A stretch of 64,000 nt of DNA, from IMG/VR virus record IMGVR_UViG_3300026484_000295, positions 1-64,000 of that record. One strand, written 5' to 3'. This DNA comes from a virus. The notes under the pieces are model-generated. The model made no database searches. It was not told where the DNA came from and worked only from the letters and a program-made list of their open reading frames with translations. The number at the start of each line of letters is the position of its first letter. Position 1 is the stretch's first letter. The position numbers were made by a program, and so were the translations under genes. Shown here in pieces: positions 20,156 through 42,331 of this stretch.

Positions 20156-20959
20156 ATGAGTAAATTAGAAGAATTAATTAATGAATTAACAGACGATGAA
20201 CTTGAATATTTGCAAGAAACAGTATTTACTGAAGATGGGGAAGTCATATCAAAAAAAGATTTTGAAAAGATACTACATTATGAAACGACCATGGAATCAC
20301 AGCAAGACGCCGTACAATTCGCTCTTAAAATCAACCTTAATAGTATCTATGGAGTTCAAATTATGCCACATTTTAAATTTGCTGATGAATGGCAAGCATT
20401 AGGTGCTTCAACCACTTTAACAGGAAGAATTTTATCAAAATACGGACTTATTGAAACCATAGAGCAATTTTTTAATCCTGAAAGAGAAAGTAGATTCGAA
20501 TTTCCATTACTTGATAATATTATTGTTGCTGCCGATGATGATGAATTCTTTGAAAATCCAGAATCACAAAAATTAAGAAGTGCAGTAATTTCCGATACTG
20601 ATAGTGTAACAAAAGATGCAACAATTGAAACGGATTTATTCGGCGTTATTAGATTTGATGATTTAGAGACAAAAGCATCACATATTACAACCGAAAACAA
20701 TAAAGAATATTTTTATTTTGATACTCCATTACAGGTTACAAATTATATTGACAATAAAGTAGTTTTTGATGAAGTTCAATATCTATATGCGCATAAAGTT
20801 GAGAAGGAAGTTTTTAAAATAGAATTAGAGGATGGCAGTTCGATTAAAGTAACTGAAGACCACTCTATAATGGTTTTAGATGAGAATGGAGAACCAACTA
20901 TTAAAAAGAAACCATCAGAATTATCAGTAGATGATATATGTATGGTTTACAATAAATAG
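20156..20959 (+). CDS. Family B DNA polymerase middle fragment (motif B to DTD of motif C) fused to split intein N-half
   Basis: QFALKINLNSIYG (motif B), TLTGR, SDTD|SV; IntN aa150-267 (from nt 20603) with IKVTEDHS block B. Confidence 0.92.
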   Translation: MSKLEELINELTDDELEYLQETVFTEDGEVISKKDFEKILHYETTMESQQDAVQFALKINLNSIYGVQIMPHFKFADEWQALGASTTLTGRILSKYGLIETIEQFFNPERESRFEFPLLDNIIVAADDDEFFENPESQKLRSAVISDTDSVTKDATIETDLFGVIRFDDLETKASHITTENNKEYFYFDTPLQVTNYIDNKVVFDEVQYLYAHKVEKEVFKIELEDGSSIKVTEDHSIMVLDENGEPTIKKKPSELSVDDICMVYNK

Positions 20960-20967
20960 GGCAAGTT

Positions 20968-21684
20968 ATGTTTAAATGTATGTGTGGTAAGACATATAAA
21001 ACTGAAAAAGGACACTTAAATCATATATCATCTTGCAAATATAATAATATAGATTTAAAAAAAATTTATAGATTAGGTCTTATTATCCATGAAAATAATA
21101 AATTCTTATTCCATGTACACTTTGGGAAAATTAATAAATTGAAAAAAGAAAGTAATTATACTAAAAGTGAAGCTGAGGAAATATTACTAAAAGAAAATAT
21201 TTTTAAATATCGAAAATCACTTTGGGATATATTAGAAATATGGCAAGATGAATTATTGCCAAGTGAATATCGAATATTTACAGGATGGGCATTTAAAACA
21301 TATAAAGATATTACATTATTATCTTTAAAAAATACTCTTGGTAACACAAAAGTAATTTATCGTTTTAATTTAGAAAATACAAATAAGATGATTAAAAAAC
21401 GTATAGATGATAGCTTACTATATATTCACAGTAATAAGACCTTTTATAATGATTTTGATTTTGTAGAAGCTTTAATTACTGGAAATATTTCCATGTATTA
21501 TGTTCTATTCAATGATTGGCTTGCATCAGAATGGTTTGGACGTTTGGAATCAGATTTACAACATGAATTAGAATATTATGTGTCCATAGCTTCTAAAATT
21601 ATTATCGAACGTTTATCACACAATGAATTTGATGAATTGCAACAATTAGCAAATTCAGACACTCCAATAATTTATGCGATGTAA
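20968..21684 (+). CDS. C2H2-like zinc-finger protein
   Basis: FKCMCGKTYKTEKGHLNHISSC. Confidence 0.6.
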   Translation: MFKCMCGKTYKTEKGHLNHISSCKYNNIDLKKIYRLGLIIHENNKFLFHVHFGKINKLKKESNYTKSEAEEILLKENIFKYRKSLWDILEIWQDELLPSEYRIFTGWAFKTYKDITLLSLKNTLGNTKVIYRFNLENTNKMIKKRIDDSLLYIHSNKTFYNDFDFVEALITGNISMYYVLFNDWLASEWFGRLESDLQHELEYYVSIASKIIIERLSHNEFDELQQLANSDTPIIYAM

Positions 21685-22117
21685 TATGAAATATGTATCC
21701 GGTGAATCTATATATACATGGTTTTTTAATATGTCAGGTGAACTCAAATATCATAAAGCAATAATAGAAAATTATGAATATATGGATGGAATGCAATGGG
21801 AAGTAATCGATACTTATAAATGCTACTATTTAAAACCTGAAAAAAAATTTTATATATTCACAAAACATAAAAGAAACTATATAAGAGTACAGGGACATAT
21901 GATACACAAGGATAAGCTAACAGCTAAGATCATTTTCTTACAATCAATTTTAAAAAAATTCGAAATAAATACATCAACAAGCGAAGAATTAAAAGTTATA
22001 ATTAATTATGCAAGTAACACTCTTAGTCAATATCTTAATAAATACCCTGAAAAGATTTTAGCGGCTTTACAAGTATCTAAAATAACTGATTCGTCAGATT
22101 TTTCTATTTGGAGATAA
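21674..22117 (+). CDS. Hypothetical protein
   Basis: 147-aa ORF in operon. Confidence 0.65.
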   Translation: MRCNMKYVSGESIYTWFFNMSGELKYHKAIIENYEYMDGMQWEVIDTYKCYYLKPEKKFYIFTKHKRNYIRVQGHMIHKDKLTAKIIFLQSILKKFEINTSTSEELKVIINYASNTLSQYLNKYPEKILAALQVSKITDSSDFSIWR

Positions 22118-22623
22118 TTATGGGAATGTATGACACCTTTGAAGTTAATAAGACAATAACATGTCCTCATTGTTCTAAAAATTTTCAATTGACACAAGGA
22201 TTACAAAGTAAGAATTTTGAAAAAGTATTAGAATACTACGAAATCGGTGATTTTATTGAATACGATGATAAATCATATATCACCGGCGAATATGATTGGT
22301 GCCCACATTGTAATAATACAGTCGATTTATATATTGGTATATACAAAGGTATTTATATTGGTATAGAACAAAATAAAGATATTATTAATGAAAAAATAGC
22401 TAATGTAGATATACTAAATTTTTATAAAAAATCATTTAAAAAATATAAGGAAACAGATATAAAATATCGTAAAATATATAATAGTATATCAAATACTATT
22501 GAACTTTTTAGTAAATCAAATAAAAATAAATTTATGTTAGGACTATTGTTGACTAAAGAAGATGTATTTGATTATAGTATTATTACTACATTAAAAAATA
22601 TTATTAATAAATTTAAAGGATAA
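22108..22623 (+). CDS. Zinc-ribbon protein
   Basis: MGMYD...CPHC...QSK...CPHC. Confidence 0.65.
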   Translation: MEIIMGMYDTFEVNKTITCPHCSKNFQLTQGLQSKNFEKVLEYYEIGDFIEYDDKSYITGEYDWCPHCNNTVDLYIGIYKGIYIGIEQNKDIINEKIANVDILNFYKKSFKKYKETDIKYRKIYNSISNTIELFSKSNKNKFMLGLLLTKEDVFDYSIITTLKNIINKFKG

Positions 22624-22678
22624 TTTAAGCAAATTTTCTTTATAATTTGTAAATTAATTAAAAAGAAGGATTAAAATA

Positions 22679-23233
22679 ATGATTGGAGCATTAAAAACAT
22701 TAGGAACTGTATTAACAATTGCGTCGACTGCATCATTTGGCAAAGACCTTTATGATAAACATAAAGATAAAAAAAGAGCCAGACAAATTAATGAGGTACA
22801 TAATTTTATTAGTTCATTAGATTTAGAAGCTTTACAAGATGCAATCGAAAGTAAAAATGAAGAAGCACTTATTGATGCAGTTGAGGACATAATTATAGCT
22901 GCTGAAACTGTAAAAAGTAAATCAGAATTAGAAGAACTAGCAGAAGATGCACAAGAATTAGCCACAAATATCATAGATAAAGTGTCTAAGGTAACATCTA
23001 CTGTTATAGATAAAGTCCAAGATAAAATTAATGATTATGAATTAGAAAAAGATATTGATCGTCCCACATATAAAGAATTTAAAAAATTAAAAAAACCTCT
23101 TGCCCTATATGCTAATGATGGTACACAATATATAATAACAGTAGATATGGTTAATGTATTTACTAATAACAAAACTAAGTCCGTAACTTACATTGTAGAT
23201 CCAAATGAAAGTATTATAGAAAAATTAGATTAA
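22679..23233 (+). CDS. Hypothetical protein
   Basis: 184 aa; TTTAAG-N11-TATAAT promoter at about 22625-22647; AAGGA SD. Confidence 0.75.
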   Translation: MIGALKTLGTVLTIASTASFGKDLYDKHKDKKRARQINEVHNFISSLDLEALQDAIESKNEEALIDAVEDIIIAAETVKSKSELEELAEDAQELATNIIDKVSKVTSTVIDKVQDKINDYELEKDIDRPTYKEFKKLKKPLALYANDGTQYIITVDMVNVFTNNKTKSVTYIVDPNESIIEKLD

Positions 23234-24372
23234 TGTTTAATTTTTCTACGCTTACCGATACCAATATTAGCTAATTTAGATTTTAATGTTAAATTGGTAT
23301 CCCCTGTTACTACACCATTCATTATCATATCGTAGGTTTCTAACCATCCAAATTTTTCAAAACTTTCACCCACATCCTTTGCAGGAGATGTAAATTTTGG
23401 ATATGAAACAACCCATTCAGGAATATTAGCTTTCAATACCGCTTTACCTAATTCCAATCCTTTTAAATCTGTATCCCACTTAAAATTTATTTTATCTTTA
23501 TCTAAAACAAACATAAGTTTCTTTTTTTGAAAATTAAAAGATTTTAAAATTTCCATTTGCTCATGAGTTATATTTTTAGATAAAACAGCCATACCATCAA
23601 AAATCCATGCATCAACTAAAGATTCTGTTATAAAAATCTGTTTAATATCTTCTGATTTAAATAACTTATCAAGCCCATAAATTATTCTCCCACGATCATT
23701 ATAATCCTCATCCGAAGGAGGATATAAATATTTGGTTTTTGTGGGAAAAAGTGCTCTTGCAGCAAATGAAATAAGTTTTCCATCAAAATAAATTGGGAAA
23801 ATTAATCTATTACTATAATCCCCTTCCAAACAAATAAATAATTCTTTAGAGGACGATATATCTTCCAAACCATGATTTTTAAGGTATTCTTTAGCTTTTT
23901 TTCTATTTTCAATAAATCTTTTTCTATATTGTATTGATATTTTATCTTTTTTCATCTTCAAGTTAATCGACACATCAGGTAATTCAATTTCCTTATATGT
24001 TATAAGTTCTATTTTATCATCATCAACTTCATCTTTTAATTCTTCTTGATCTTTTAATTCAGCTTTTGGAAATAATTTCTCTTTTTTAATTTCAAGAAGA
24101 ATAGCTCCTACTTTTTTCCATGCTGATTTTGATATAAAATTAGCTAAAGTATTAATATTTGAGCCAGTAAATCTATGTTTTCGACCACAATTAAAACATT
24201 GAAATCCTATTTCATCATGCTGAAATAAAAAGTGACTTCTTGGATTTTTACTACGACCATCATGACAATATGGACAACCTGTTAAGTTTTGTCGCCACCC
24301 TTTCGATGATGTATTACCCATTCTAAAATATTGAGTTATAAATCCTTCCTGTTTAATCCCGTAATTTATCAC
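23230..24372 (-). CDS. DNA primase (T4 gp61-like)
   Basis: CPYCHDG...CFNCG Zn finger; RLIFP; ARAL...KY; TOPRIM FITES..DA, DKD, KDVGE. Confidence 0.88.
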   Translation of the reverse strand: MINYGIKQEGFITQYFRMGNTSSKGWRQNLTGCPYCHDGRSKNPRSHFLFQHDEIGFQCFNCGRKHRFTGSNINTLANFISKSAWKKVGAILLEIKKEKLFPKAELKDQEELKDEVDDDKIELITYKEIELPDVSINLKMKKDKISIQYRKRFIENRKKAKEYLKNHGLEDISSSKELFICLEGDYSNRLIFPIYFDGKLISFAARALFPTKTKYLYPPSDEDYNDRGRIIYGLDKLFKSEDIKQIFITESLVDAWIFDGMAVLSKNITHEQMEILKSFNFQKKKLMFVLDKDKINFKWDTDLKGLELGKAVLKANIPEWVVSYPKFTSPAKDVGESFEKFGWLETYDMIMNGVVTGDTNLTLKSKLANIGIGKRRKIKH

Positions 24373-24700
24373 TTAATTCCTTTAATATATCTGCTAATTT
24401 ATTTTTTAAATATTTCTTATATTTTACAATTTTAGTCATTTTCTCAAACTTCCCAGAGATAATTTTTTTATCAGTTATAGAAAATTTAATCTTTGATAAA
24501 GAATCTGTATTTTCAAACGTTACAACTGATTTAATAAAGGACCAGGATACAATTACATAATTATATCCCTCTATTTCAAAAACACCAAAACGATATAAAC
24601 TTTTAGTATTTTTATTAATTTTTTTATGATTGATGTCGATACCTGATAAAATTAAAGCATTTATTAAAGTATCGAGGTATTTTTTATCTTTCTCAGTCAT
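24353..24700 (-). CDS. Hypothetical protein
   Basis: 115-aa ORF in operon. Confidence 0.65.
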   Translation of the reverse strand: MTEKDKKYLDTLINALILSGIDINHKKINKNTKSLYRFGVFEIEGYNYVIVSWSFIKSVVTFENTDSLSKIKFSITDKKIISGKFEKMTKIVKYKKYLKNKLADILKELSDKLRD

Positions 24701-25023
24701 ACACTTCCTTCTTTTATTTTAAGTAAATGTGAATTATTTCCCGAACCCATTATCATAAAAGCTATTTCAGGATAGTCTTTATCAAAATTTGAAATTAATC
24801 TATTTTTTGCTATTAAACTTAAAGGTGTCAAATCTAAAATTAAATGTTCTTCATTAGTATATAGCATATCAAATATATCATATTTTTTTAATACTATGTC
24901 GGTTAATACAATTAAAATATAATCATTAAAACGTTCTAAAAATTTAGCATTATCAATCATTATATTCTTTATATCATTAGATATTGTATTAAGGGTATGC
25001 CTTTTAATTTCAATTATTAACAT
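24697..25023 (-). CDS. Hypothetical protein
   Basis: 108-aa ORF in operon. Confidence 0.65.
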   Translation of the reverse strand: MLIIEIKRHTLNTISNDIKNIMIDNAKFLERFNDYILIVLTDIVLKKYDIFDMLYTNEEHLILDLTPLSLIAKNRLISNFDKDYPEIAFMIMGSGNNSHLLKIKEGSV

Positions 25024-25024
25024 T

Positions 25025-25483
25025 TTAATACATTATATTATGTTGAATTTTATGAAGATCAATTATACCTTTAACTTTCCAATCAAATGCAGACAATTCC
25101 TTTTCCTTTGTCTGCATGGCATGAATAGTTTGTTCCATTTTACGTAATAATGATTTAGTCGCTTTATATTCTGACAGTTTTCTAATTTCCCGTTCATAGT
25201 CTTTAGTAGTTTTTAATAGTTCGGGAAAACCATCATAATCTTCTGCTATACTGTGAAATTGTTGTGAATGCCATGATTCAAATTCTGTCTCTAAATCAGC
25301 ATACATCAATCTAATCTTAAACATTATCTTTGTAAGTTTTGATTGATGGAAAGATGCAAGAGCGATAGACTCTTGCAATTTTTCAAGATCAATTTTTGGA
25401 TCTAATGAAAAATTCATTATTTCGGTTAGATCATCAAATTCATAATCAGTTAGGACTTCTTGAAGAAATTCTAATTGCGACAT
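25025..25483 (-). CDS. uvsY: Recombination mediator, UvsY-like
   Basis: Helical protein of about 150 aa with LKT.KD..EI and W.VK..ID..K C-terminal pattern. Confidence 0.55.
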   Translation of the reverse strand: MSQLEFLQEVLTDYEFDDLTEIMNFSLDPKIDLEKLQESIALASFHQSKLTKIMFKIRLMYADLETEFESWHSQQFHSIAEDYDGFPELLKTTKDYEREIRKLSEYKATKSLLRKMEQTIHAMQTKEKELSAFDWKVKGIIDLHKIQHNIMY

Positions 25484-25531
25484 ATACTTTTCCTTATTTT
25501 AAATATAAGGTAATTTTACATTTTTTATTAA

Positions 25532-25867
25532 TTATTCTTCACTAAAATAAGTTACATTTAGATCATCTAATTCAAAACCATAATTTGCAGCAGCTTGTTC
25601 TAAATCTAATACTGTGTAATTTTCACTAGTTTTAACTTTTCTTATTGCTGTTAAAGCATTTGTATGTAGAAAAGTATCAAATGCATCAAACATAAATTGT
25701 TTATCAACTCCTGCTTTTTCTGCGTACGATTCAATAACACTCATTGTAATATCGCCAGGCTTTACGGTTTTATTAATCTCTTTTACAACCTCTTGAAATT
25801 TCTTAGCTTGTTTTTGTAACGAAGCCGTTGTTGATTTGATTGTATTCTTTTTTCTAAACATGAACAT
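25532..25867 (-). CDS. Hypothetical protein
   Basis: 111 aa; GAGG SD. Confidence 0.7.
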   Translation of the reverse strand: MFMFRKKNTIKSTTASLQKQAKKFQEVVKEINKTVKPGDITMSVIESYAEKAGVDKQFMFDAFDTFLHTNALTAIRKVKTSENYTVLDLEQAAANYGFELDDLNVTYFSEE

Positions 25868-25943
25868 ACGATTAATCCTCTCTTTAATATATTTCTTTTA
25901 TTTATTCATTTTTTTGTAAAATATCTCTAAATAAAAATAAGGC

Positions 25944-27311
25944 TTGAAAATGAAAATAATAAACAATGAATTATTTGAAAAACCTAGTTGTAAATTTAAA
26001 TTTCTAGCAAAAGAAGGGTTTAATATACCTAATTTTTATGAAGTTGAATCAACCGATGAAATTTTTGTTATATATAAAAATTATACAGAGAGTAAACGCG
26101 AGAGCTTATCTTATGATATAGATGGGTTAGTTGAAGAAATTAACGATTATGAAATTCAAGAAAAATTAGGCTATGAACCAAATGGTTTAAATCCAAAATT
26201 TGCTACAGCTATAAAATTCGACAGTATATCTAAAAGTACAGAATTAATAGATATAAGATGGACTGTTGGTATGACCGGAAAAATTATTCCTACTGCCATT
26301 TTAAATCCTATAGACATTATGGGAGTAACCATTACCAAAGCATCAATGCATAATTTTGATTATTTAATGGATTATATAAACAAATATAAAATCGGCATTG
26401 GAAGTAAAATGATAGTTGCGAGAAAAGGTGATGTTATACCACAAATAATAGGTGTTGCAAATAATAAAAAATTATCAGATATCCAAATACCTAACTTATG
26501 CCCTATATGTAATGAAAAAATACATAAATTTTCAGTTGATTTGATTTGTGAAAACCCATTTTGCGAAGCTAAAACTAAAGGAATTTTTACTAATTTCTTT
26601 GGTACGTTGGATATAAAAGGACTAAGTGAAAAATTTATAGATAAAGCTATCGAACAATTTAATATTAAAACGATCGATGATCTCATGAAACTTACAATTG
26701 ACGATATAGAATCGCTTGAAGGATTTGCCAGAAAATCAGCAGAAAAAGCGTATAATGCTATTCATAGTGTTAAAGAAGTGAGTCCAGAACAATTCATGGC
26801 ATTATTAAACATACCCAATCAAGGTGTTCGGGTCTTTGAGAATTTATTATCTGAAACCCCAATAGAAAAATTACTAGATCCAAATTTTAAAGCTGAAGAT
26901 TTATTAGATACTAAAGGAATTGCAGAAAAAACAGCTCATGCTATATATGATGGCATCCAAATGAATTTAGAAAGAATACGTGAAAATGCTGAACATTTTA
27001 CTATAATAGTAAAGAAAAATAAAACTCACCATTCTAGTAAAATTACAGGAAAATCTTTTTGTATAACTGGTACATTGAATAAAGGTAAAAGAAAAGATTA
27101 TGAAAATTCAATCAAATCTATGGGAGGTTTAGTTTCTAGTGTTAATAAGTCATTAAATTATTTAGTTACAAATGACCCAGAAACAACTTCTAGTAAAATG
27201 ACTAAGGCATTAAAACTTAATGCAGAATGGCATAACAACGGTGAAGATAGATCAATACAAATAATTAATGAAGATGATTTAATAAATTTAATAGGAGATA
27301 CTAATGAGTAA
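25944..27311 (+). CDS. ligA: NAD-dependent DNA ligase, C-terminal portion only
   Basis: YDIDGLV, PKFATAIKF, VGMTGKIIP, ASMHN, KGDVIP, CPIC..C..C Zn finger, HhH, BRCT (GKSFCITGTL); lacks domain Ia and KxDG. Confidence 0.85.
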   Translation: MKMKIINNELFEKPSCKFKFLAKEGFNIPNFYEVESTDEIFVIYKNYTESKRESLSYDIDGLVEEINDYEIQEKLGYEPNGLNPKFATAIKFDSISKSTELIDIRWTVGMTGKIIPTAILNPIDIMGVTITKASMHNFDYLMDYINKYKIGIGSKMIVARKGDVIPQIIGVANNKKLSDIQIPNLCPICNEKIHKFSVDLICENPFCEAKTKGIFTNFFGTLDIKGLSEKFIDKAIEQFNIKTIDDLMKLTIDDIESLEGFARKSAEKAYNAIHSVKEVSPEQFMALLNIPNQGVRVFENLLSETPIEKLLDPNFKAEDLLDTKGIAEKTAHAIYDGIQMNLERIRENAEHFTIIVKKNKTHHSSKITGKSFCITGTLNKGKRKDYENSIKSMGGLVSSVNKSLNYLVTNDPETTSSKMTKALKLNAEWHNNGEDRSIQIINEDDLINLIGDTNE

Positions 27312-27768: not shown

Positions 27769-27814
27769 TTTTTTTGTAAAATATCAATAATAGAATTATA
27801 AAAGAAGGAAAATA

Positions 27815-28783: not shown

Positions 28784-28785
28784 TA

Positions 28786-29403
28786 ATGATTTATATCAGT
28801 ATAGATTTAGAAACAACGGGCTTAGATCCAGATACTTGCCAAATTTTAGAATTTGGTGCTGTTTTAGAAGATACTAACAATATCAAACCATTAGATGAAT
28901 TACCAACTTATCATGCATATATCAAACACCCAGGTGGAAATATTTCTGGAAATATATATGCTTTAGATCTTAATAAAGAAATTATTAGTAACCTTAAAAA
29001 TGAAAAAGATCTAAAAGACAAATACAATTTTATAAAAGTTGAAGATTTAGCCGATGATTTTCTTGCATGGTGTAAAATACAAGGATTAGAAATTAAAGAA
29101 AACACATACGATAATAAGACAAACTATTCATGTACTATCAATGTGGCTGGGAAAAATTTTGCTGGATTTGATCGTAAGTTTTTAGAAAACGTACCAGATT
29201 TTACTAAGAAAATACGTATGAGACAAAGAGTAATTGATCCTGCTATTTTATTTATTGATTGGGAAAATGATACTTCGGCTCCACATTTAGAATTATGCAA
29301 ACAAAGGGCAGATATATCTGGAATTGTTACACACTTAGCAGTTGATGACGCAATGGATGTAATTAAATTATTACGAACCCAGTATGCTAATAGACCGAAT
29401 TGA
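28786..29403 (+). CDS. DEDDh 3'-5' exonuclease (DnaQ/oligoribonuclease-like)
   Basis: IDLETTGLD, AGKNFAGFD, HLAVDD. Confidence 0.88.
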   Translation: MIYISIDLETTGLDPDTCQILEFGAVLEDTNNIKPLDELPTYHAYIKHPGGNISGNIYALDLNKEIISNLKNEKDLKDKYNFIKVEDLADDFLAWCKIQGLEIKENTYDNKTNYSCTINVAGKNFAGFDRKFLENVPDFTKKIRMRQRVIDPAILFIDWENDTSAPHLELCKQRADISGIVTHLAVDDAMDVIKLLRTQYANRPN

Positions 29404-30382: not shown

Positions 30383-32359
30383 CTATCTCCAATTATCTGA
30401 AATTTCTTCAATTTCATTTATTTCAATATCATTATATAGAACAATTTTTAGAAAGTACCCATAATTAGAATCTACTGTTGAATTTGTACCGATTGTCCAA
30501 CCGATTTCAAGTCGATTACCAATCTTATCAATATCAGTTGCACAACCTGTACCATCTACGGTACTATTATTTGCAAAATCCTGAGCATCATATAAAACAT
30601 TTAAATTCAACCACCCTGTTAGTGATGGAAATTTAATAAATATATCAAAGTCTATACCTAAATTGCCCAATGTTAATATTTTAATACGTCCGTTAGAATT
30701 AGATTTTAATAGCGATTGGAATGATCTATAATAAAACTGGTCGTCAGATGAAAATCCACTATAATCTACTGCAAGTCCGTATTTAGCATAATCTGTGTTT
30801 GCTTTTTTAAGTTTGCCTAAAAATTGTTGTGCATTGTATTGTGTTAATAATTCTTCACTATCCCATATATTTTTCGAACCAATTATAGTCGCATCATCAA
30901 AATTCGTTGAATCTGGCAAACGATAATCTTCATCTTTAAATGTCTCTTTCAATAAATTTGAATTATCATTAATATTATTAGTATCTATTAACAGATCTAA
31001 TCTGTATGATGTAGTAGGTCCCCATCCTGTGGTAACTTTCCCACCTTTAGCATATATTTCTACTTTATCACGCATTACACCCACTCCAACAAACTTGATC
31101 ACATAATCAGTCAAAATTAAAGTATCATTCCAATTAGGTACTAATTCTCCAGCCAAATTACTAGCTGGATCATTCCATACAATATTACTTGCATTAGAAT
31201 ATGCCATTGATAAATTTAAGGGGTAATCCCAATAAGTATTAGCAAAAATATTTTCAGATGTTAAACTAAGACCAAATTCAATATTTTTATTTAAAAACTC
31301 TATACCAGAAATGCTTTTTGCATTTCCTGTTTTTAAATAAAAATTATCGATAGTAGTATTAACAACAGTACTATCATAATCATAAAATATTTCGGATGTA
31401 TTAGTTAAGTAGTCTCCACCTGCTACATCAGTATGTTTAACATAAAATGAGTGTTTACCTGGGGAAATTGATGCCTGTCCAGATATAGTACCTATATTTA
31501 ATTCGCCTGTTCCTCGTTGCCATTTTTTAAAATCGTTATAACGTTCAATATTATTTATTGTTAAAATGTGCGTATCACTACGATATAAATCTTTATTTGG
31601 ATTTACTGTAATACTAGTACTCGTTCCATCATTAAGAGTTATTGTTTGGTTGATATCCGGTAAAAAACCTTGAACTGTACCATAATAATCTCTGCTAGAT
31701 TCATTAAAATTGTTGAATAAATCAATACCATCATCAACTTCTATCCCATCATACACAGCAACAATAGTACCTTGATCTGCTCTACCAAATTGTAGCTGTT
31801 GTTTATCTTTTACCGTGTATCCATGTATGGGCAATTCAGCAGATAGTTTATTATCAGTTATAATATAGGATATATAATCACCGTCAGATAAATCACCTAG
31901 ACGCAATCTTTCAGAAATCTGATCATTTTGTTTAGCTATTCTACCAGATTTAAAACCGCCGACAACATCAATCACTAAATCCCCAAATAGAGGTGATGCT
32001 TCTGCAGGCGCTAAATCCTTCAATGCTTCATTGATTTCATCTACCGCCGTTGATATTTTTGTTGTAGTACTAAATTCAAATAAACCATCCGGATAATATT
32101 CGCCGTCCCTTGTAAAACCAATTTCATCTGAGCCTAATAAAACAACTTCTAATATATGTGGTTCATAAGGTAGTCCAGTCTGAGGATCCAATTTTAGATT
32201 AACACTTTGAAATTTTCCAATAGAAGTATTATACCAAATCCTGCCTAATCGCCACTCTGATTCGGGTGGTACAGCATCTAAAGTTTCTGGTACTAAATTT
32301 TTAATTTTAGCATTTGGGCTCATATTTAGATGTTGTTTTAAATAAAAATCTGCTGACAT
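30383..32359 (-). CDS. Putative virion structural protein
   Basis: 658 aa, beta-rich; GRIWYN; ATAAATA upstream. Confidence 0.6.
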   Translation of the reverse strand: MSADFYLKQHLNMSPNAKIKNLVPETLDAVPPESEWRLGRIWYNTSIGKFQSVNLKLDPQTGLPYEPHILEVVLLGSDEIGFTRDGEYYPDGLFEFSTTTKISTAVDEINEALKDLAPAEASPLFGDLVIDVVGGFKSGRIAKQNDQISERLRLGDLSDGDYISYIITDNKLSAELPIHGYTVKDKQQLQFGRADQGTIVAVYDGIEVDDGIDLFNNFNESSRDYYGTVQGFLPDINQTITLNDGTSTSITVNPNKDLYRSDTHILTINNIERYNDFKKWQRGTGELNIGTISGQASISPGKHSFYVKHTDVAGGDYLTNTSEIFYDYDSTVVNTTIDNFYLKTGNAKSISGIEFLNKNIEFGLSLTSENIFANTYWDYPLNLSMAYSNASNIVWNDPASNLAGELVPNWNDTLILTDYVIKFVGVGVMRDKVEIYAKGGKVTTGWGPTTSYRLDLLIDTNNINDNSNLLKETFKDEDYRLPDSTNFDDATIIGSKNIWDSEELLTQYNAQQFLGKLKKANTDYAKYGLAVDYSGFSSDDQFYYRSFQSLLKSNSNGRIKILTLGNLGIDFDIFIKFPSLTGWLNLNVLYDAQDFANNSTVDGTGCATDIDKIGNRLEIGWTIGTNSTVDSNYGYFLKIVLYNDIEINEIEEISDNWR

Positions 32360-34806: not shown

Positions 34807-35693
34807 TACCAAACCAACCAGTAAAAGTAGATGTCGAAGAAGCACAAGATTTAGCAAATATTAAAACATCAAAAATTAAAATAGGACTAGATGATATAGA
34901 CAATTTTATCAAAGATGAAATTAAAGATAGTTTTTATATGAAATTTTCTAATGGAGATTTTGAAAAATCATGGTCAGAGTATAAATCAATTCCTGTATTT
35001 TTAGCAAAAGGAAATATTTATGATCTGGTACCGGAAGGTATTTCTAAAGAGACACATTATGTATTACGTTTAGTTGCAACATGGCATGTTGAAAAAGCAT
35101 TAAATGCTTTAAAATTCGATACTGATAATGATGATAATCTTAAAATAGATACCTCTATGGGTAATATTGGTACAGCGGGACGTATAGCAAAAATATGGGC
35201 AGGAAATACTTTAGATTCTGAAAATATTAGAGAATATGGTGATGGAAGATTTACAAAAATGCCAAGACTTGCAGCATTTCCAGCATCTGAAAAAGATAGA
35301 AAACGACCTGTTACTGTTAATATTGAAAATGCTGGAATTGGAAGTGTATGTTCCCACCACTTCCTACCATTCAGTATTACGAATGATAATAATAGCAGAA
35401 TAGTAATTTCATACATTCCAAAAGATAAACTATTAGGCTTAAGTAAAATCGGCAGATTTGTAGAGTGGTGTTTAAATAGGCCGTCATTGCAAGAAGAGGT
35501 AACTGCACTAATTCATGAAAAAATTTCTAAAATTGCAGAAACTGAAGATGTGTACGTTGGTCTTTTTAATATTGTTCACAGTTGTGAAACTACTCGTGGT
35601 GCAAAACAATATTCTACTACTACAACTGAAGATTATAGCGGTGTATTTGATGACCCGATTATGAGAAGTACTATTTTAGATGGAATCAAATAA
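34803..35693 (+). CDS. folE: GTP cyclohydrolase I
   Basis: SVCSHHFLPF, GLSKIGR, RPSLQEEVT, HSCETTRG. Confidence 0.93.
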   Translation: MIPNQPVKVDVEEAQDLANIKTSKIKIGLDDIDNFIKDEIKDSFYMKFSNGDFEKSWSEYKSIPVFLAKGNIYDLVPEGISKETHYVLRLVATWHVEKALNALKFDTDNDDNLKIDTSMGNIGTAGRIAKIWAGNTLDSENIREYGDGRFTKMPRLAAFPASEKDRKRPVTVNIENAGIGSVCSHHFLPFSITNDNNSRIVISYIPKDKLLGLSKIGRFVEWCLNRPSLQEEVTALIHEKISKIAETEDVYVGLFNIVHSCETTRGAKQYSTTTTEDYSGVFDDPIMRSTILDGIK

Positions 35694-36147
35694 AATACAG
35701 ATAGGAGGTTATGATACTCATAACCTCAGCGACAATTCAGTTTTTTTTGCATCAAAACATAAAAAATCAAAAATATCTTTCATTATACATAGCATTACAA
35801 TTATAAATGATTCAGAAATATTTAAAATTTTATTAAAAAATAAGTTTATTATTCGTATAATGAAGTTTAAAGATGAACAAACACAACAACCATCACTTGT
35901 TATAGACTTTGTTGACACAATATCAAATCAAATTAAGTCTAAACCCAATAAAATATTTTATAATGGTGTTGGTGTTGGTGGATTTTTATTTGAATTAAAT
36001 TATATTTCCCAATGGGAAATACCTATTATTGATAAGCTATTAAGATCTTTCGTTATAGGTTCTAAAGAAGATTTTTTGGAAATTATCAAATCATATAATC
36101 TATTTTTAAATAGTGAAACACAATTATTCATCGAAACCCATTTTTAA
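35680..36147 (+). CDS. Hypothetical protein
   Basis: 155-aa ORF. Confidence 0.6.
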   Translation: MESNKIQIGGYDTHNLSDNSVFFASKHKKSKISFIIHSITIINDSEIFKILLKNKFIIRIMKFKDEQTQQPSLVIDFVDTISNQIKSKPNKIFYNGVGVGGFLFELNYISQWEIPIIDKLLRSFVIGSKEDFLEIIKSYNLFLNSETQLFIETHF

Positions 36148-36874
36148 AAGGTATAAATTGAACTATTCACCATATTCATTTTCCAAAATTAACACTTACA
36201 AACATTGCCAAAAAAAATTTGAATGGACTTACGTAAATAAAAAAAATATCGATAAAAATTATAGTGATCCTACATATTTTCAACGAGGACGCTTCATACA
36301 TCAATATATCGCAAAACGGTTATTAGGTCAAAATATAGAAATAAATGGTTATTCATCAATAGAAATAGATGATAAATTAGATTTGATAGACCGGGCAGAT
36401 AAAGCATTGGAAAATGAATATATAAATATAACGTTCGATTTTGATATTACGGAAGTAGAACAACCTATTAAATTAGATAAATCTTGTAAAATTTCTAAAT
36501 CAAAAAAAGATAGCATGTTTACGGGTTTTATAGATTATTATGCAGTACATGATAACTTAGGTACAATCGTTGACTGGAAAAGTGGAAAATTTAGAGATAA
36601 TCCAAGTTTTGAACAATTACAATTATACTCTATATGGCTAATAGAAAAATACCCACAAATAGATGAAATCGATTTACTTTATTATTATATCGAACATAAT
36701 AAATTTAATATCTTAACAATAGATAAAGAAGCGGTTATTAAATTTCGAGATAGTCTATTATATGATATTTCTACGATAGAAAAAACTGATACTTTTTCTA
36801 TTAATCCATCTAAACAATGTGTGTATTGTCCTTTTTTTGAATCTTGTTTAGATGAATTTAATATTCTAATTTAA
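36113..36874 (+). CDS. Cas4/AddB-like PD-(D/E)XK exonuclease
   Basis: SFSKI..Y..C, G..IH, E, GFID, IVDWKSGK, QL..Y, C-terminal CVYCPF..C. Confidence 0.85.
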   Translation: MKHNYSSKPIFKRYKLNYSPYSFSKINTYKHCQKKFEWTYVNKKNIDKNYSDPTYFQRGRFIHQYIAKRLLGQNIEINGYSSIEIDDKLDLIDRADKALENEYINITFDFDITEVEQPIKLDKSCKISKSKKDSMFTGFIDYYAVHDNLGTIVDWKSGKFRDNPSFEQLQLYSIWLIEKYPQIDEIDLLYYYIEHNKFNILTIDKEAVIKFRDSLLYDISTIEKTDTFSINPSKQCVYCPFFESCLDEFNILI

Positions 36875-37213
36875 ATTATATTGTTCTTGAATTAGAGCAG
36901 ATAATGCATTTTTAAGTATATCTTCATATTTACTTTTCGATGCTGGTCCTGCTAGATTACCATAAACTTTACCTTTTTTCATAAATAAAACTGCTGGTAA
37001 TGTATTCATCTGAAAATAAGAAGCTACTTTGTGTTGTTCTAATATACGACATAGATAAATATCTACTTTCCCTTTTAAACGTTCATCAAATTCTTTAAAT
37101 ATTTCTAGAATCCGAGTTTTAGTTGGTATATCATCTGAATAAAATAATATATATTGTGCTTTATCTTCTAATAAAAATGCATCAACATTTTCATCTGTTA
37201 AATCTTTTATCAA
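36866..37213 (-). CDS. Thioredoxin-fold protein lacking CxxC
   Basis: LTDEN.D, FYS, cis-Pro TLPAVLF.K.GK; the CxxC position reads DIPT. Confidence 0.65.
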   Translation of the reverse strand: MIKDLTDENVDAFLLEDKAQYILFYSDDIPTKTRILEIFKEFDERLKGKVDIYLCRILEQHKVASYFQMNTLPAVLFMKKGKVYGNLAGPASKSKYEDILKNALSALIQEQYNLN

Positions 37214-37287
37214 TTCTATCTCCTTTGTTATATAGATTAATTTTACATTTTTTTGTAAAATATTAAAAAAGAAAATAAGGAAAATAT

Positions 37288-39819
37288 ATGAATAACCTTT
37301 CTAAAAAGGCAACAGATTATTTAAAACATTTAAATGACTTGGATATTGCATGGTTTGAAGATAAAAATTCAAAGTTTGTTATGCTATTTGAAAAACCTTC
37401 ACAAGTTAAAGCTATAAAACCTGTTATGGGCTCTACAAAAGATACAAAACATATTAAAAATATTTCTCTTGCTGGCCATACAATGAGACTAAAGAATTTT
37501 GATGAATATAATACTAAACTAAAGGACAAATCATGGTATAAAATGGTTAAAGATAAAGATTTACCGTTTATACCTGATAACTATGAGTTAGTTGTTAAAG
37601 AAAAATCAACAGGTAAATTTAAAACCGATTATCAAGAAATGGTTTTAAATGCCAAGCGGGCATTTGATGAAGCTGATTGGATTGTTTTAGGTGTTGATCC
37701 TGATAATGAAGGGTGTGCATTAGGGATGGAAGTTATTATGAAATGTAATGCTGAAGATAAAGTAATCGGTATGGTTAATATGTCCAAACTTGATTTTCAT
37801 TCATTAAAAGAAGAAGTTAAAACTTTAGATAAAATACCTTTTTGGAATATGGCTCAGAGTGGTTTTGCTAGAGGAGAGTTTGACTGGGCTTTTGGTTTAA
37901 ATAATACTATTTTAGCATCGGTATTATTAGGCGGTGGACAAACATATCATATCGGCGGCGTAAAATCACCAGTTATAAGAATGGTAGTAGATAGATTGAA
38001 TCATATTAAAAATTTTAAGCCTGTTAAATACTGGAGATTTGGAGGGTTAGCAAAACATAAAGAATCTGGTGTAGAATTTAATTATATTATAAAAATTAAA
38101 CAAGATGATACAGACATTATCAAAACTCAAAAAAATATAGATAAACTTGAGAAGGAATTAGAGTCCATCGATAAAGATAATGAAATCAATAAAGATAAAG
38201 TTTCGTCATTATATAATGAATTAGGCAAATTAAGATGGAAATTAAATGAATCGGTTAAAGAATTTGAGAGTTCAGAGAGAGATATTTATTCAAGTAAAAT
38301 GAGAAAAAAAGTTGAAAATGCTATAAAAGAGGGTATGAATTTTAAAGTGAGTAAATACGTACAAAAAAATAATCTCACTCAAAATCCACCTTTAGCATAT
38401 TCATTAACCGACTTACAATCGGAGGCAGGAAATTTACATAATTTTACTCCTGCAAAAACATTGGCTACAGCACAGAAATTATATGAAGGTCAATGGCAAT
38501 CTTATCCTAGAACAGATAATAGATATTACGCAAGTGGTGAAATGTCAAATATTAAAAAAATAATACCAAATTTATTGAATTTATCATCATTTAAAAATGT
38601 TAATATTCCTACCCCGTTTAAAGTAAAAACCGGAGTATTTAATAGTGCGAAAGTATCAGCCCACACAGGTTTGGCACCAACAGCAAAAGAAATGACTGAT
38701 AAATCATTATCCGGAGAACAAAAAATTATTTTTGATATGGTTGCGACAAGATACCTTATTCAATTCATGGATAAATTTGAATACTATAAAGTAGAAATGG
38801 ATGCCGATATTGATGATGATATATATCTGACTACCTTCCAAAATATCCAAACTAAAAAAGGTTGGAGAGAATTATATAATCCGGCTAATATGTACGGTTT
38901 TACTTATGTAGAACAACAAACTTTACCAACAATGAAAAAAGGCGATGACATCGAAATCATCACAATAGAAAAAGAATCATTAGAAACCAAACCAAAACCT
39001 ATGTTTAGTGAATTCAGTTTATTAAAAGGCATGGAAAATATTTCTCGTATATATCCAGAATTAGAAGGATTAGAAAAAGGTATAGGAACTCCGGCTACAA
39101 GAGCAAGCATATTAGATGCTTTATTTAAATCAAAATATCTAATTAAAAAAGGCAGAGTCATTGATGCAAGTGAAAAAGCAATAATACTTACAAATTTATT
39201 ACCTGATGAAATGACTAACCCTAAATTAAGAGCTGATATGGAAGCAAAACTTAATCAGATCGTTGATGGTAGTTTGACAAAAAAAGAGTATGAATTAGAG
39301 TTTAAGAAAATGGTTGAAGAACAGGCTAAAAAATTATATGAAATAGGCAAAAAACATAAAATTGAAATAATTGATAAAGCTACTTTACCTCCTAGTGAAG
39401 CACAATTAAAATTTGCAAAAACTATGGAGAAAGAATTAAATATAAAAATTCCTAAAGAAGCTCTAGAACTTAAAGATGAATTAACCAAATGGCTTAAAAA
39501 ACATGAAAAGAAGATGCCTAATTTGCTTTCTGATAAACAGGTTGCATTTTTAACTGAATATGGTCAGGATGATGAAGAAATCATAGCAATATTAGAAGCC
39601 AATGCTAAAAGAGAAATGACAAAAGAACAAAAATTCAAAGCATCTAAATGGTTAGGAACTTATATGCGAACTAGTGAATATCAGAAAAAGAGAGCTGCAA
39701 AAGCAGCTGCTACTAGAAAACGTAATAGAGAAGCTAAAATGAAAGCTATGGGCATTGAAACCCCAACAGTTTCTATAAAACGTCCACGTAAAAAGAAAGA
39801 GAAAAAAGAAAATAAATAA
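37288..39819 (+). CDS. Type IA DNA topoisomerase (Topo III-like)
   Basis: EKPS, GH, DPDNEG TOPRIM, AQKLYE, SYPRTD active Tyr, AH.GLAPT, GIGTPATRASI. Confidence 0.93.
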   Translation: MNNLSKKATDYLKHLNDLDIAWFEDKNSKFVMLFEKPSQVKAIKPVMGSTKDTKHIKNISLAGHTMRLKNFDEYNTKLKDKSWYKMVKDKDLPFIPDNYELVVKEKSTGKFKTDYQEMVLNAKRAFDEADWIVLGVDPDNEGCALGMEVIMKCNAEDKVIGMVNMSKLDFHSLKEEVKTLDKIPFWNMAQSGFARGEFDWAFGLNNTILASVLLGGGQTYHIGGVKSPVIRMVVDRLNHIKNFKPVKYWRFGGLAKHKESGVEFNYIIKIKQDDTDIIKTQKNIDKLEKELESIDKDNEINKDKVSSLYNELGKLRWKLNESVKEFESSERDIYSSKMRKKVENAIKEGMNFKVSKYVQKNNLTQNPPLAYSLTDLQSEAGNLHNFTPAKTLATAQKLYEGQWQSYPRTDNRYYASGEMSNIKKIIPNLLNLSSFKNVNIPTPFKVKTGVFNSAKVSAHTGLAPTAKEMTDKSLSGEQKIIFDMVATRYLIQFMDKFEYYKVEMDADIDDDIYLTTFQNIQTKKGWRELYNPANMYGFTYVEQQTLPTMKKGDDIEIITIEKESLETKPKPMFSEFSLLKGMENISRIYPELEGLEKGIGTPATRASILDALFKSKYLIKKGRVIDASEKAIILTNLLPDEMTNPKLRADMEAKLNQIVDGSLTKKEYELEFKKMVEEQAKKLYEIGKKHKIEIIDKATLPPSEAQLKFAKTMEKELNIKIPKEALELKDELTKWLKKHEKKMPNLLSDKQVAFLTEYGQDDEEIIAILEANAKREMTKEQKFKASKWLGTYMRTSEYQKKRAAKAAATRKRNREAKMKAMGIETPTVSIKRPRKKKEKKENK

Positions 39820-39861
39820 TTCTTTTTTTCTCTATAAATAAATTAAAAAAGGATTGTATGA

Positions 39862-40170
39862 ATGACACTGCTTGAATTAAATGAATCCCTTTCTCTAAAT
39901 TTTGAAAACGGCATTATTGTATATTTGGATAAATCGAATAAAACGTTTAGATTTATGGATCCAAAAGATAGTAAACGTCGAGGTTTAACAACAACTATAA
40001 AAAATAAAAACGATTATAAAAAACTAACACGTTATTATAAAATTGATAGCAGCTTTGATGAGTTTGTACCTTTGAGTAATGAATTTAAGAAAAATAATAA
40101 GTCAAATGAAATGAGAAAAGTTTTAGCTGCTATGCAAAATGATATTCTTAAATTAACTAAAGGTATATAA
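39862..40170 (+). CDS. Hypothetical late protein
   Basis: TATAAATA at 39833-39840; 102 aa. Confidence 0.65.
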   Translation: MTLLELNESLSLNFENGIIVYLDKSNKTFRFMDPKDSKRRGLTTTIKNKNDYKKLTRYYKIDSSFDEFVPLSNEFKKNNKSNEMRKVLAAMQNDILKLTKGI

Positions 40171-40172
40171 TA

Positions 40173-41126
40173 ATGGCTTATGGGCATTATTCTCGACGTT
40201 ATTCATATGAAAGTCCATCACCGGTAGAAGTATCAGATACCGATATAAAGACCTTATTTGATACTCTTAAAGAACAAATAGAAAATAATAAATTAAAAGA
40301 TATAAGATCAACATTATCTAAACTAAAATTATCTTCAAATGAAAAATATAAAGATTATGTCGGGTTTAATGCTGTAATTATAGCTTATATACACGCATTA
40401 AAAATAGGCAGTAATAAAGCAATAAATAGTTTAGAAAAAACTATTTTTAAAAAAAATTTTACATTTGATGGGTTAAATATTATATCGCTTTCTAAAATTC
40501 TAAAAAATGATTTTAAATTATTTATAGATCAATATCTGATACATAAAAACGCAATATACACAATAAATGATAATGAAACTATTACCTTTTTATTCTTAAA
40601 TTATCCTACTGAAACAGAAATAATTATTCAAAATGGTAAAATTAGTAAATTTATAAAAGGGCAGGATAGATTAAATGTAATACTATCAATAATTAAGTAT
40701 TCTAAGTTATTTGAAACTATTGTAACTAGTTTAACAACTTTGTATGGTATCGAATACGTAGATAAATTCTCGATTAAATATGATACTTTGAAAAAAATTC
40801 ATGATGAAATAATCTTAAAACCAAAAAACCTCTTAAAGTCTCTATTAAATGATTTTTACTATATTATATATAGAGAATTTATAACTGCAGATATTTTAAG
40901 TTATGATTTAGAACATAAATTATTATTAGAAATTACACAAAAAAATTATATTGACTCTATACTAAATATAAGTGAAAAAAAACTTTTTGAATTATTATAT
41001 TCAATTAAAGATCCTGTATTGCGCACTAATTTTATAGTTAGTTCTGAAAAAGTATTATCATTAATTATTAAAAATGGAGATAATACACTCATCCCTGATG
41101 AAATAAAGGACATATTTCTTTTTTAA
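40173..41126 (+). CDS. Hypothetical protein
   Basis: 317-aa ORF. Confidence 0.7.
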   Translation: MAYGHYSRRYSYESPSPVEVSDTDIKTLFDTLKEQIENNKLKDIRSTLSKLKLSSNEKYKDYVGFNAVIIAYIHALKIGSNKAINSLEKTIFKKNFTFDGLNIISLSKILKNDFKLFIDQYLIHKNAIYTINDNETITFLFLNYPTETEIIIQNGKISKFIKGQDRLNVILSIIKYSKLFETIVTSLTTLYGIEYVDKFSIKYDTLKKIHDEIILKPKNLLKSLLNDFYYIIYREFITADILSYDLEHKLLLEITQKNYIDSILNISEKKLFELLYSIKDPVLRTNFIVSSEKVLSLIIKNGDNTLIPDEIKDIFLF

Positions 41127-41176
41127 AAAAATTGTAAAATATTATACAAATAACACAGTATAATAAGGTATTTACA

Positions 41177-42331
41177 ATGACACTATCTCACAAAAAAATA
41201 AAATCTATTAAAAAAGTTAAATATTATGATAAAGTATATGATATAACTATGAAGTCCAATCCACACACATTTTTTGCTAATAATATTCTAGTCCATAACA
41301 GTTGTTATTTTAGAATAATGGAGGCAGAAAATTTAGATGAAGCTCAAAAAATTGGTGCCGATGTTGTAAAAGCATGTGATGAAGGTAGCATTCCTATGCT
41401 GGTTAAAGATATTTTTAATGGTGATGATGTCATGAGATCCGATTTTGAGGCTATTGCACGTTCAACTTTATCATACGGTAAAAAGAAACAATATGCGTTT
41501 CTAAAAGGTTGGGAAGACGGCGAAGTACTTCCAAAACCAAAATTAGGTATTACCGGTCTATCTATTAAAAGATCTGATTCACCTAAACAACTATCTATGG
41601 AAATGAAACCATTCTTTACTGAAATTATGAAAGGATTAAAACACGAAGAAATTAAAGAAGCTATGGATAAAATCGAAGGCGATTATGACGATCTAAGCTT
41701 ATACGATTTATCCGCAAAACGTTCAGCAAACAATTTAGGTAAATATTTAAAAGCATTCAATTATGAAATTGAATATAAATCTAGGCCCTATAATATAGAA
41801 AAAATTGATGAATTTTTAAAAGAAGAGTATCAAGATATAAAAATTAAAATAGATGATAAAATATATTTTGATTTTATGAGAGAAGGTAAAGGACGTTATT
41901 CATTAGAAGATGGCAATTTAATAAAGGATGTTAATGGTGAAATTTATATTGAAGCAAAGGTAAAAATGGTTGTTCCATTTCATATTAAAGCATCAATTTT
42001 ATATAACTATCTATTAGATGAATATAATTTATCGTCTGAATTTAATCAAATATTAAATGGCGAAAAAATTAAACTTTTTTACATTAAACCTACAAAAATA
42101 AATATCAAATATACAAATAGTGATGGTGAAGTATTTGATATGATACAAGAATTTGATTGTATTGCATTCCCTTCTAGTTCTAAACACATACCAACATTTA
42201 TTAATGATTTTACTCCAGATAAAAAGAGAATGTTGGAAACTTATTTCTTTGGTAAAATGGAAACCATTTTTGATGTTATTGGGTTTAGTAAAGAAAAACT
42301 TGAAAATATAGCTATGGATTCACTATTCTAA
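41177..42331 (+). CDS. Split intein C-half fused to family B DNA polymerase C-terminal fragment
   Basis: IntC aa1-41 VYDITM...HTFFANNILVHN|S; then SCYF, KKKQYA, ITGLSIKRSDSP, PFHIKAS..YN, GEKIK..Y. Confidence 0.92.
   Translation: MTLSHKKIKSIKKVKYYDKVYDITMKSNPHTFFANNILVHNSCYFRIMEAENLDEAQKIGADVVKACDEGSIPMLVKDIFNGDDVMRSDFEAIARSTLSYGKKKQYAFLKGWEDGEVLPKPKLGITGLSIKRSDSPKQLSMEMKPFFTEIMKGLKHEEIKEAMDKIEGDYDDLSLYDLSAKRSANNLGKYLKAFNYEIEYKSRPYNIEKIDEFLKEEYQDIKIKIDDKIYFDFMREGKGRYSLEDGNLIKDVNGEIYIEAKVKMVVPFHIKASILYNYLLDEYNLSSEFNQILNGEKIKLFYIKPTKINIKYTNSDGEVFDMIQEFDCIAFPSSSKHIPTFINDFTPDKKRMLETYFFGKMETIFDVIGFSKEKLENIAMDSLF

Follow-up and report, generated by a model that had tools for sequence, protein, structure and literature searches.

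How a phage could obtain a DNA polymerase from gene fragments that lie 20 kb apart is the question raised by the first 64 kb of the IMG/VR virus record IMGVR_UViG_3300026484_000295 (henceforth referred to as the window, that is, the whole stretch of 64,000 nucleotides that was analysed). The record is linear, 172,404 bp long and 27% G+C, and is 61% complete according to CheckV. An earlier note on this DNA had proposed that two genes in the window encode parts of a family-B DNA polymerase (PolB) that are joined in trans by a split intein with serine at both splice junctions. Our analysis leads to much the same answer: the two genes are, in our judgement, highly likely to be the cognate halves of a naturally split class-1 Ser1/Ser+1 intein inserted in motif C of a T4/RB69-type family-B polymerase, and their sequences indicate that this split intein is very probably conserved and functional. 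For comparison we used a sister genome, IMGVR_UViG_3300026521_000003 (289,880 bp; 87% complete according to CheckV), which is colinear with the record across record positions 15.9-172 kb at ~90% nucleotide identity, so that the two jointly represent ~306 kb of one jumbo phage lineage. Further relatives were sought in a collection of 1.84 billion proteins, and relatives of the genes for the PolB halves were found on contigs of up to 347-496 kb.

The N-half gene is an open reading frame (ORF) on the + strand (20156..20959) that encodes 267 aa, of which 149 aa are polymerase and 118 aa are the N-terminal part of the intein (IntN). The polymerase fragment (the N-extein, 20156..20602) contains the second fingers helix with motif B (KINLNSIYG) and the palm up to motif C, matches positions 144-237 of the PF00136 profile and ends with the residues AVISDTD. 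IntN (20603..20956, stop codon 20957-20959) opens with Ser150, which corresponds to Ser1, directly after SDTD, and carries His213 at the position of the NX motif and a block B that reads VTEDHS and contains Thr233 and His236. In a six-frame search of the whole 172-kb record with the NCBIfam intein profiles, intein_Nterm (TIGR01445, cut-off 24.5 bits) matched 20606-20875 with 41.6 bits (E 3e-11), which is the sole such match in the record, and neither phmmer nor a small hidden Markov model (HMM) found a second IntN in the 172 kb. IntN is homologous to the IntN of phages PTm1 and PA5oct and, in a search of the PDB, the closest solved chain annotated as a DNA polymerase, 9hth_A, matched it at E 1.7e-4.

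The C-half gene (41177..42331, + strand) encodes 384 aa, made up of a 41-aa C-terminal intein part (IntC, 41177..41299) and a 343-aa C-terminal fragment of PolB (the C-extein, 41300..42331). No start codon lies between the upstream stop and the ATG at 41177. IntC contains block F (VYDI) and ends in HTFFANNILVHN, its block G closing with ILVHN, in which His40 and Asn41 are the last two residues; SCYF follows, the serine of which is Ser+1. The profile intein_Cterm (TIGR01443, cut-off 15.6 bits) matched 41231-41302 with 26 bits (E 3e-6). Beyond Ser+1 the C-extein comprises the remainder of the palm with the KKxY motif, the thumb and a tail that ends in DSLF; it aligns to residues 704-791 of RB69 gp43, around the KKRY motif of that enzyme, its own version of the string being GKKKQYA. 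The ORF coordinates, the SDTD end, the 118-aa IntN with TEDH and the 41-aa IntC followed by SCYF were thus exactly as the earlier note had described them, and the HMM check that it had suggested for Hint-type domains gave matches above the cut-offs on both halves. Its statement that IntN has one cysteine, near its end, was likewise accurate: this is residue 263 of the ORF, which is C, V, I, L or T among relatives and hence not conserved. IntC has no cysteine, although the C-extein has one at position +2. Judged from this lack of a conserved cysteine, the intein is of the cysteine-less Ser1/Ser+1 oxyester class.

The two extein fragments fit together as consecutive parts of one polymerase. On the profile of PHROG 262 (phrog_262, DNA polymerase, 856 positions) the N piece covers positions 497-553 and the C piece 599-851, and on an unsplit 889-aa PolB relative they align to residues 533-580 and 637-886, respectively, with the YGDTDS of that protein lying between both ranges. 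Motif B, the DTD of motif C and KKxY of family B (T4/RB69 gp43 type) are colinear across the two pieces. From the extein alignments to the unsplit PolB and to RB69 it follows that splicing would rebuild motif C as SDTD-S in a chain of 492 aa. The claim that DNA polymerase B is rejoined therefore stands for motif C and needs restricting for the enzyme, since the product would be just the C-terminal ~490 residues. The N piece starts only ~57 aa ahead of motif B (20156..20330), without an IntC, at the same point as ORF-239 of PTm1, and the sequence thus indicates that this PolB is broken a second time, without an intein, before motif B. A third piece with the N-terminal domain, the exonuclease and motif A would therefore be required.

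Both halves are widespread and conserved. The N-half gene is represented by ~70 protein clusters (265-268 aa) and the C-half gene by ~50 (381-384 aa), at 50-98% identity and with a uniform architecture. Residues S150, H213, T233, D235, H236 and S237 are invariant in the 18 aligned relatives of the N half, as are V20, D22, F32, F33, N35, H40, N41, S42 (Ser+1) and Y44 in the 19 of the C half. Purifying selection acts on both halves: relative to the sister genome, the ratio of non-synonymous to synonymous substitution rates (dN/dS) is 0.04 for the exteins, 0.11 for IntN and 0 for IntC (5 synonymous and 0 non-synonymous differences). The net charges of the halves are complementary, IntN being acidic (-12) and IntC basic (+6). 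When IntN (residues 145-267 of its ORF) was co-folded with IntC (residues 1-46), as the earlier note had proposed, the pair scored 0.80 compared with 0.00 for the best of 3 controls; the runs agreed in at least 96% of contacts and the partner had a predicted local distance difference test score (pLDDT) of at least 78. Of 80 solved complexes 58 reached the mark applied, as did 2 of 110 mismatched pairs; these counts hold only roughly here as our own alignments were used. The model supports the ability of the separate halves to assemble into one Hint fold, although, since split-intein complexes have already been solved, the pass may reflect likeness to them and is no proof of binding by the present copy.

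From the motifs we infer the following course of expression, splicing and its chemistry. Each half would be produced from a gene of its own that has a separate ribosome-binding site and promoter-like motif, and the acidic IntN would capture the basic IntC to give a single Hint domain. Ser150 would then attack the carbonyl of Asp149 in an N-O acyl shift aided by His213 and by Thr233 and His236 of block B, the N-extein would pass to Ser+1 by transesterification, cyclisation of Asn41, aided by His40, would release the intein, and an O-N shift would leave a peptide bond in ...SDTD-SCYF..., detectable as the tryptic junction peptide SAVISDTDSCYFR. The 492-aa product would contain the second fingers helix with motif B, the palm with motif C and KKxY, the thumb and the C-terminal tail. 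As in PTm1, it would associate, with no intein involved, with a further piece that supplies the N-terminal domain, the exonuclease and motif A. Since the junction falls directly after the second catalytic Asp, ahead of a Ser, no polymerase centre would exist before splicing.

What distinguishes the locus is its arrangement. The ~27 ORFs of at least 90 aa that separate the halves in the window lie on both strands, which agrees with the earlier note's count of more than 20 genes; its description of these genes as unrelated holds less well, as several are replication genes. The latter encode a primase-like protein, the C-terminal part of an NAD-dependent DNA ligase, a clamp-loader ATPase, an RNase T-type exonuclease and a topoisomerase IA, and are accompanied by genes for a dUTPase, a ClpP-like protease, a GTP cyclohydrolase I, a PD-(D/E)XK/Cas4-like nuclease and a thioredoxin. 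The halves are likewise 20 kb apart in the sister genome. On the JGI record Ga0611983_000027, the coordinates of both proteins (N half 16185-16985, 70% identical; C half 45225-46373, 82% identical) place them 28 kb apart, with neighbours as here.

In line with the earlier note, neither half is abutted by a recognisable endonuclease gene. Directly downstream of the IntN gene lies an ORF of 238 aa (20968..21684, +), which has just 8 representatives among the proteins of the large collection and for which AlphaFold2 predicts an all-alpha structure (pLDDT 91) that has no match in the PDB at E<=0.001. Directly upstream of the IntC gene lies an ORF of 317 aa (40173..41126, +), an ortholog of which precedes the C half in the JGI relative; its model (pLDDT 64) was too poor for a structure search. 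Neither ORF has a Pfam or PHROG match. Because Pfam misses the annotated Vsr-like endonuclease of PTm1, the four ORFs flanking the halves were also compared directly with Vsr-like, Hef-like and GIY-YIG endonucleases from related loci and showed no similarity to them, and a profile of Vsr-like endonucleases found nothing in the whole record. One relative (ENA contig k141_943576; C half 74% identical to that in the window) has a gene for a SegE-like GIY-YIG endonuclease (L124:1867-2910, - strand; 26.5 bits, cut-off 25) placed divergently beside the IntC gene; such a gene is not present in the window.

More distant IMG/VR relatives (~30% identity) have the halves 0-1 kb apart. In five of them (contigs L040, L045, L048, L051 and L053) an ORF of ~317-360 aa between the halves is a homolog of the Vsr-like endonuclease of PTm1 (E 1e-16 to 1e-29), and in L050 no gene separates the adjacent halves. 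Numerous other relatives are intein-free PolBs of 889 aa that are not split. L045, L050, L051 and L053 carry a related split intein two residues earlier in motif C (YGD/TDS, where the slash marks the insertion point), with Thr+1 and not Ser+1, and the allele is therefore present at two neighbouring sites.

The same type of architecture was found by tblastn in PA5oct-like Pseudomonas phages, PTm1, Salicola phage SCTP-2, CP21-type Campylobacter phages and RaK2-like Klebsiella phages. The split PolB intein of MIJ3 has been published (Imam et al. 2019, PMC6892783), and that of MIJ3 and PA5oct (LR588166, MK797984) shares with the intein described here the DTD/S site, Ser1 and Ser+1, block B TEDHS and near-identical blocks F and G (VYDI, NNILVHN/S), its PolB plus IntN being 31% identical over 80% of the query. 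In PA5oct and MIJ3, however, the N gene carries the whole N-terminal part of PolB (804 aa), whereas here there is the extra break before motif B, and a gene for a Hef/HNH-type homing endonuclease lies between halves 1.7 kb apart, in contrast to the 20 kb without such a gene seen here. Closer in its breaks is Tenacibaculum phage PTm1 (AP019524), in which ORF-236, ORF-239 and ORF-241, annotated as an 'intein-containing split DNA polymerase precursor', make up a PolB in three pieces: the second (264 aa) begins ~57 aa ahead of motif B and terminates in an IntN of the shared allele, and the C piece opens with an IntC that ends in ...ILVHN/S. The junction residues and blocks A, B, F and G of both PA5oct and PTm1 align with those found here. 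In PTm1 all pieces lie in order within 7 kb, a Vsr-like endonuclease separating IntN from IntC, whereas here 20 kb lie between the last two pieces and the first went undetected in the ~306 kb.

Cysteine-less split inteins of T4-like phage or metagenomic PolBs are already in use as tools (Aes123 PolB1, as CL and CLm, CP21 PolB1, LCGC14 PolB2, GOM-OPS-1 PolB2 and PolB16 OarG; PMC11923092, PMC12707363, PMC10189870), and the first and second of these papers bear out the statement in the earlier note that split PolB inteins such as Aes123 PolB1 occur in T4-like phages. These tool inteins are of the Ser1/Ser+1 oxyester class, conserve the His at the NX position and have an IntN of 115-120 aa and an IntC of 39-46 aa, to be compared with 118 and 41 aa here, and PolB16 has a DTD N-extein as here. 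They differ in that sequence similarity is low, in that Arg or Lys precedes the NX His where Ala stands here, and in that they have been characterised biochemically with no genomic context reported for them, whereas the present intein is known from its sequence. The suggestion in the earlier note that the intein (Ser1, Ser+1 and no conserved Cys) is a candidate for a cysteine-independent splicing tool is not new, as both the class and the allele have been described and cysteine-less PolB split inteins that are already characterised as tools provide a direct precedent.

For the wide separation of the halves there are parallels in cells. The distantly split polymerase of Nanoarchaeum that the earlier note had mentioned is described in PMC2677866; there, the PolB of Nanoarchaeum equitans and the cyanobacterial DnaE are encoded at separate loci with no endonuclease between them, and an essential replicative polymerase needs trans-splicing. 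Those are cellular genomes, and DnaE is a family-C polymerase, whereas the present case concerns a phage genome with several other split genes. The intein-less break in the PolB resembles the gp43 A/B split into two genes in T4-like phages of Aeromonas (work of Petrov and Karam cited in PMC2677866). The 'fractured genes' of Dassa et al. (2009; PMC2677866) are similar in that phage-type replication genes are broken by split inteins, and their layout with a Vsr-like endonuclease is the one seen in the five distant relatives above, but the defining free-standing homing endonuclease between adjacent halves was not found here. Since uncoupling of the halves is the proposed end of the fractured-gene pathway (step IV) in that paper, the present locus would represent the uncoupled end-state of an allele that in other jumbo phages has an endonuclease between adjacent halves. 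The novelty is accordingly limited: the intein allele and its chemical class were known, and what appears new is the uncoupled, endonuclease-free layout in a phage and a replication module fractured in several places.

Four observations weigh against the splicing of an intact polymerase as set out above. Each half alone scores below the Pfam gathering score for Intein_splicing (profile positions 35-94 on the N half and 119-155 on the C half), which is expected because they are half domains. The residue that precedes the invariant His213 is Ala, where the paper that defined the NX motif reports Arg or Lys (PMC10189870); members of the lineage have Ala, Ser or Glu there, and distant relatives, PTm1 and PA5oct among them, have Arg. 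The N-terminal, exonuclease and motif A part of PolB went undetected in the ~306 kb by every method used, so that the spliced product may never become an active polymerase. In six-frame searches of the record and the sister genome no match to PF03104, PF00136, PF10108 or phrog_262 was found for this piece; blastp and phmmer with ORF-236 of PTm1 and the N part of PA5oct were negative in both, as was a custom HMM built from 15 N parts, and hhalign, run with a profile of 8 sequences against all frames of 150 aa or more, reached a best probability of 4.8%. When the large protein collection was searched with a profile, distant unsplit PolBs swamped the matches and no lead emerged. As both genomes are incomplete, absence of the piece from the phage is not demonstrated, and it would lie outside the sequenced parts or have become unrecognisable. 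A motif-A-like string at 239346-239810 of the sister genome was rejected as a chance occurrence in low-complexity sequence, and a 658-aa ORF (30383..32359) considered as a polymerase has no Pfam or PHROG match and appears by eye to be structural rather than polymerase-like. Finally, the presence of a DnaE-type fragment (DNA_pol3_alpha, 24.1 bits; record 156933-157163, +) and of a stand-alone DnaQ-type exonuclease (RNase_T, 28786..29403, +; directly after the clamp-loader gene) means that PolB need not be the sole replicase, and from these matches the phage may have a second, family-C polymerase system.

These points bear on two readings other than trans-splicing. The Hint halves could have lost splicing and serve as a module for docking only, that is, for non-covalent heterodimerisation of the polymerase fragments. 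The co-fold speaks for association and not for chemistry, poor or absent splicing is common among purified split-intein precursors (PMC11923092), and Ala stands ahead of the NX-motif His where Arg or Lys is reported, all of which such a module would accommodate. It would, however, be free to lose the residues needed for chemistry only, yet Ser1, the Thr and His of block B, the penultimate His, the terminal Asn and Ser+1 are invariant down to ~26-30% identity, and an unspliced Hint domain of 159 aa would interrupt motif C directly after the catalytic Asp; we therefore regard docking without splicing as unlikely. Somewhat different in kind is the proposal that the fragments are relics of a broken PolB whose N-terminal part is truly absent, with replication carried out by a split DnaE-type enzyme and the DnaQ-type exonuclease. 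The failure to find the N-terminal region, the DnaE-type fragment, the exonuclease beside the clamp loader and the precedent of a split Pol III alpha in jumbo phages (PMC7824862) are what this proposal has in its favour. Relics would not be expected to show what is seen here, namely ORFs intact in more than 50 clusters at 50-98% identity, an extein dN/dS that denotes strong purifying selection, and conservation of motif B, DTD, KKxY and the C-terminal tail; moreover the missing region loses weight given that the two genomes are 61% and 87% complete and that PTm1 has an equal break with a separate N piece. We consider it very unlikely that the fragments are relics.

It is also conceivable that the two halves are real and the pairing is wrong, the PolB IntN joining another IntC, of topoisomerase II or of a helicase-like gene, or several of them promiscuously. 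The earlier note had pointed to a different cognate IntC elsewhere in the genome as evidence against its pairing, and a second IntC, also followed by Ser+1, does exist at record 73623..74855; in addition, the sister genome has four IntC-type and only two IntN-type HMM matches. The second IntC belongs, however, to a type II topoisomerase with its own partner, a Cys1 IntN on a GyrB-type half ending in EGD in the sister genome. The two IntCs are unrelated in sequence (phmmer E>1), and that of the topoisomerase is acidic (-9), as is the PolB IntN, whereas the PolB IntC is basic; furthermore, the homologs of the PolB IntN and IntC in PA5oct and PTm1 are halves that pair with each other. Being unrelated in sequence, oppositely charged and provided with its own partner, the second IntC poses no threat to the PolB pairing, and we attach only a very slight probability to exchange or promiscuity among the inteins. 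Trans-splicing between the two genes in the window, with a Ser1/Ser+1 split intein that would rebuild motif C across a 20-kb gap, as the earlier note had proposed, was supported by every computational test.

The polymerase is not the only gene of this lineage to be broken. The topoisomerase carries its split intein at the EGD/SA TOPRIM motif: the ORF with the IntC lies on the - strand of the record outside the window, and its 49-aa IntC precedes TOPRIM/TOPRIM_C, while the GHKL/GyrB half with a 95-aa IntN lies at 176790-178418 (+) of the sister genome (L031:730-2358), 117 kb away and on the opposite strand. An ORF of 573 aa with weak similarity to Hef-like endonucleases (record 71895..73616) abuts the C half of the topoisomerase. 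The NAD-dependent DNA ligase is broken without an intein; the ORF in the window (25944..27311, +) runs from position 177 of the adenylation profile and contains the OB, HhH and BRCT domains, and a 267-aa ORF with the KxDG motif (profile positions 4-164) lies ~176 kb away at 185859-186659 of the sister genome (L037:1192-1992). Two further intein pieces are found in the part of the genome missing from the 172-kb record. One, at sister genome 225480-226097 (L027:5480-6097), is a 37-aa IntC with Ser+1 and an extein without a Pfam match, and the other, at 279367-280167 (L015:1216-2016), is a Hint piece of ~110 aa with a TxxH motif and the end ...SHN/C within a terminase-like ORF, the sequence of which suggests an atypically split intein. 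A homolog of Hef-like endonucleases (275793-277970; E 2e-60 to gp312 of PA5oct) lies just upstream of the terminase-like ORF.

The window has several further features of note. Upstream of the N-half gene the sequence reads as a promoter-like TTGTATAAT (20125-20133), TATAAT (20134-20139) and a Shine-Dalgarno GGAGGA (20147-20152), and upstream of the C-half gene as a promoter-like TTGTAAAAT (41132-41140), TATAAT (41159-41164) and a Shine-Dalgarno AAGG (41165-41168), all on the + strand. The nonamer TTGTAwAAT precedes 11 ORF starts in the window by 15-70 nt (at 20125, 25914, 27774, 37253, 41132, 57417 and others), including, at 30-57 nt, those of both PolB pieces and of the primase-like, ligase, clamp-loader and topoisomerase IA genes. 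For TGTAAAAT we counted 24 occurrences compared with 13.5 expected, a number that none of 100 shuffles reached, and TTGTAwAAT may, from its placement, be a class-specific promoter element. The ORF at 40173..41126 ends in IKDIFLF, an array of ORFs at 236-244 kb of the sister genome that are not otherwise alike shares a DIF(I/V)F ending of this kind, and the PolB C piece ends in DSLF; by their sequence, these endings may be sliding-clamp-binding tails. The window also encodes a full flagellin (44026..44829, +; Flagellin_N E 6e-38 plus Flagellin_C), and other cell-like genes encode a DnaJ with all three domains, a nucleotidyltransferase of the CCA-adding/poly(A) polymerase type and an M17 leucyl aminopeptidase (42856..43863, 46665..47903 and 9301..10683, respectively, all on the - strand).

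With its relatives, the PolB intein described here lays out an evolutionary series of one allele, from the unsplit, intein-free PolB through adjacent halves with a Vsr-like, HNH or Hef-like endonuclease and adjacent halves without one to the uncoupled halves of this lineage. The uncoupling step was predicted by Dassa et al. (2009) and illustrated there with cellular genomes only, and here the uncoupled layout is stable, being kept from 98% to ~50% protein identity. With the catalytic Asp of motif C at the junction, polymerase activity must wait for splicing. The lineage also offers natural split inteins whose halves have had a long evolution of meeting from separate transcripts, one of these inteins being cysteine-free, and the charge pattern of the PolB intein partners is opposite to that of the topoisomerase IntC of the same genome. 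On balance, we lean slightly towards the broader view that a widespread clade of uncultured jumbo phages (~300-350 kb) replicates by means of permanently fractured, scattered genes that are joined by mutually orthogonal split inteins, the scattered set comprising PolB (20-28 kb), topoisomerase II (117 kb), the helicase-like and terminase-like inteins, and the intein-less breaks of the NAD ligase and PolB. If this is true, several orthogonal split inteins, at least one of them cysteine-free, must fire for infection to proceed, and the clade would offer natural orthogonal splicing pairs and, as far as we have searched, the first case in a virus of the end-state in which, under the fractured-gene model, the halves are uncoupled.

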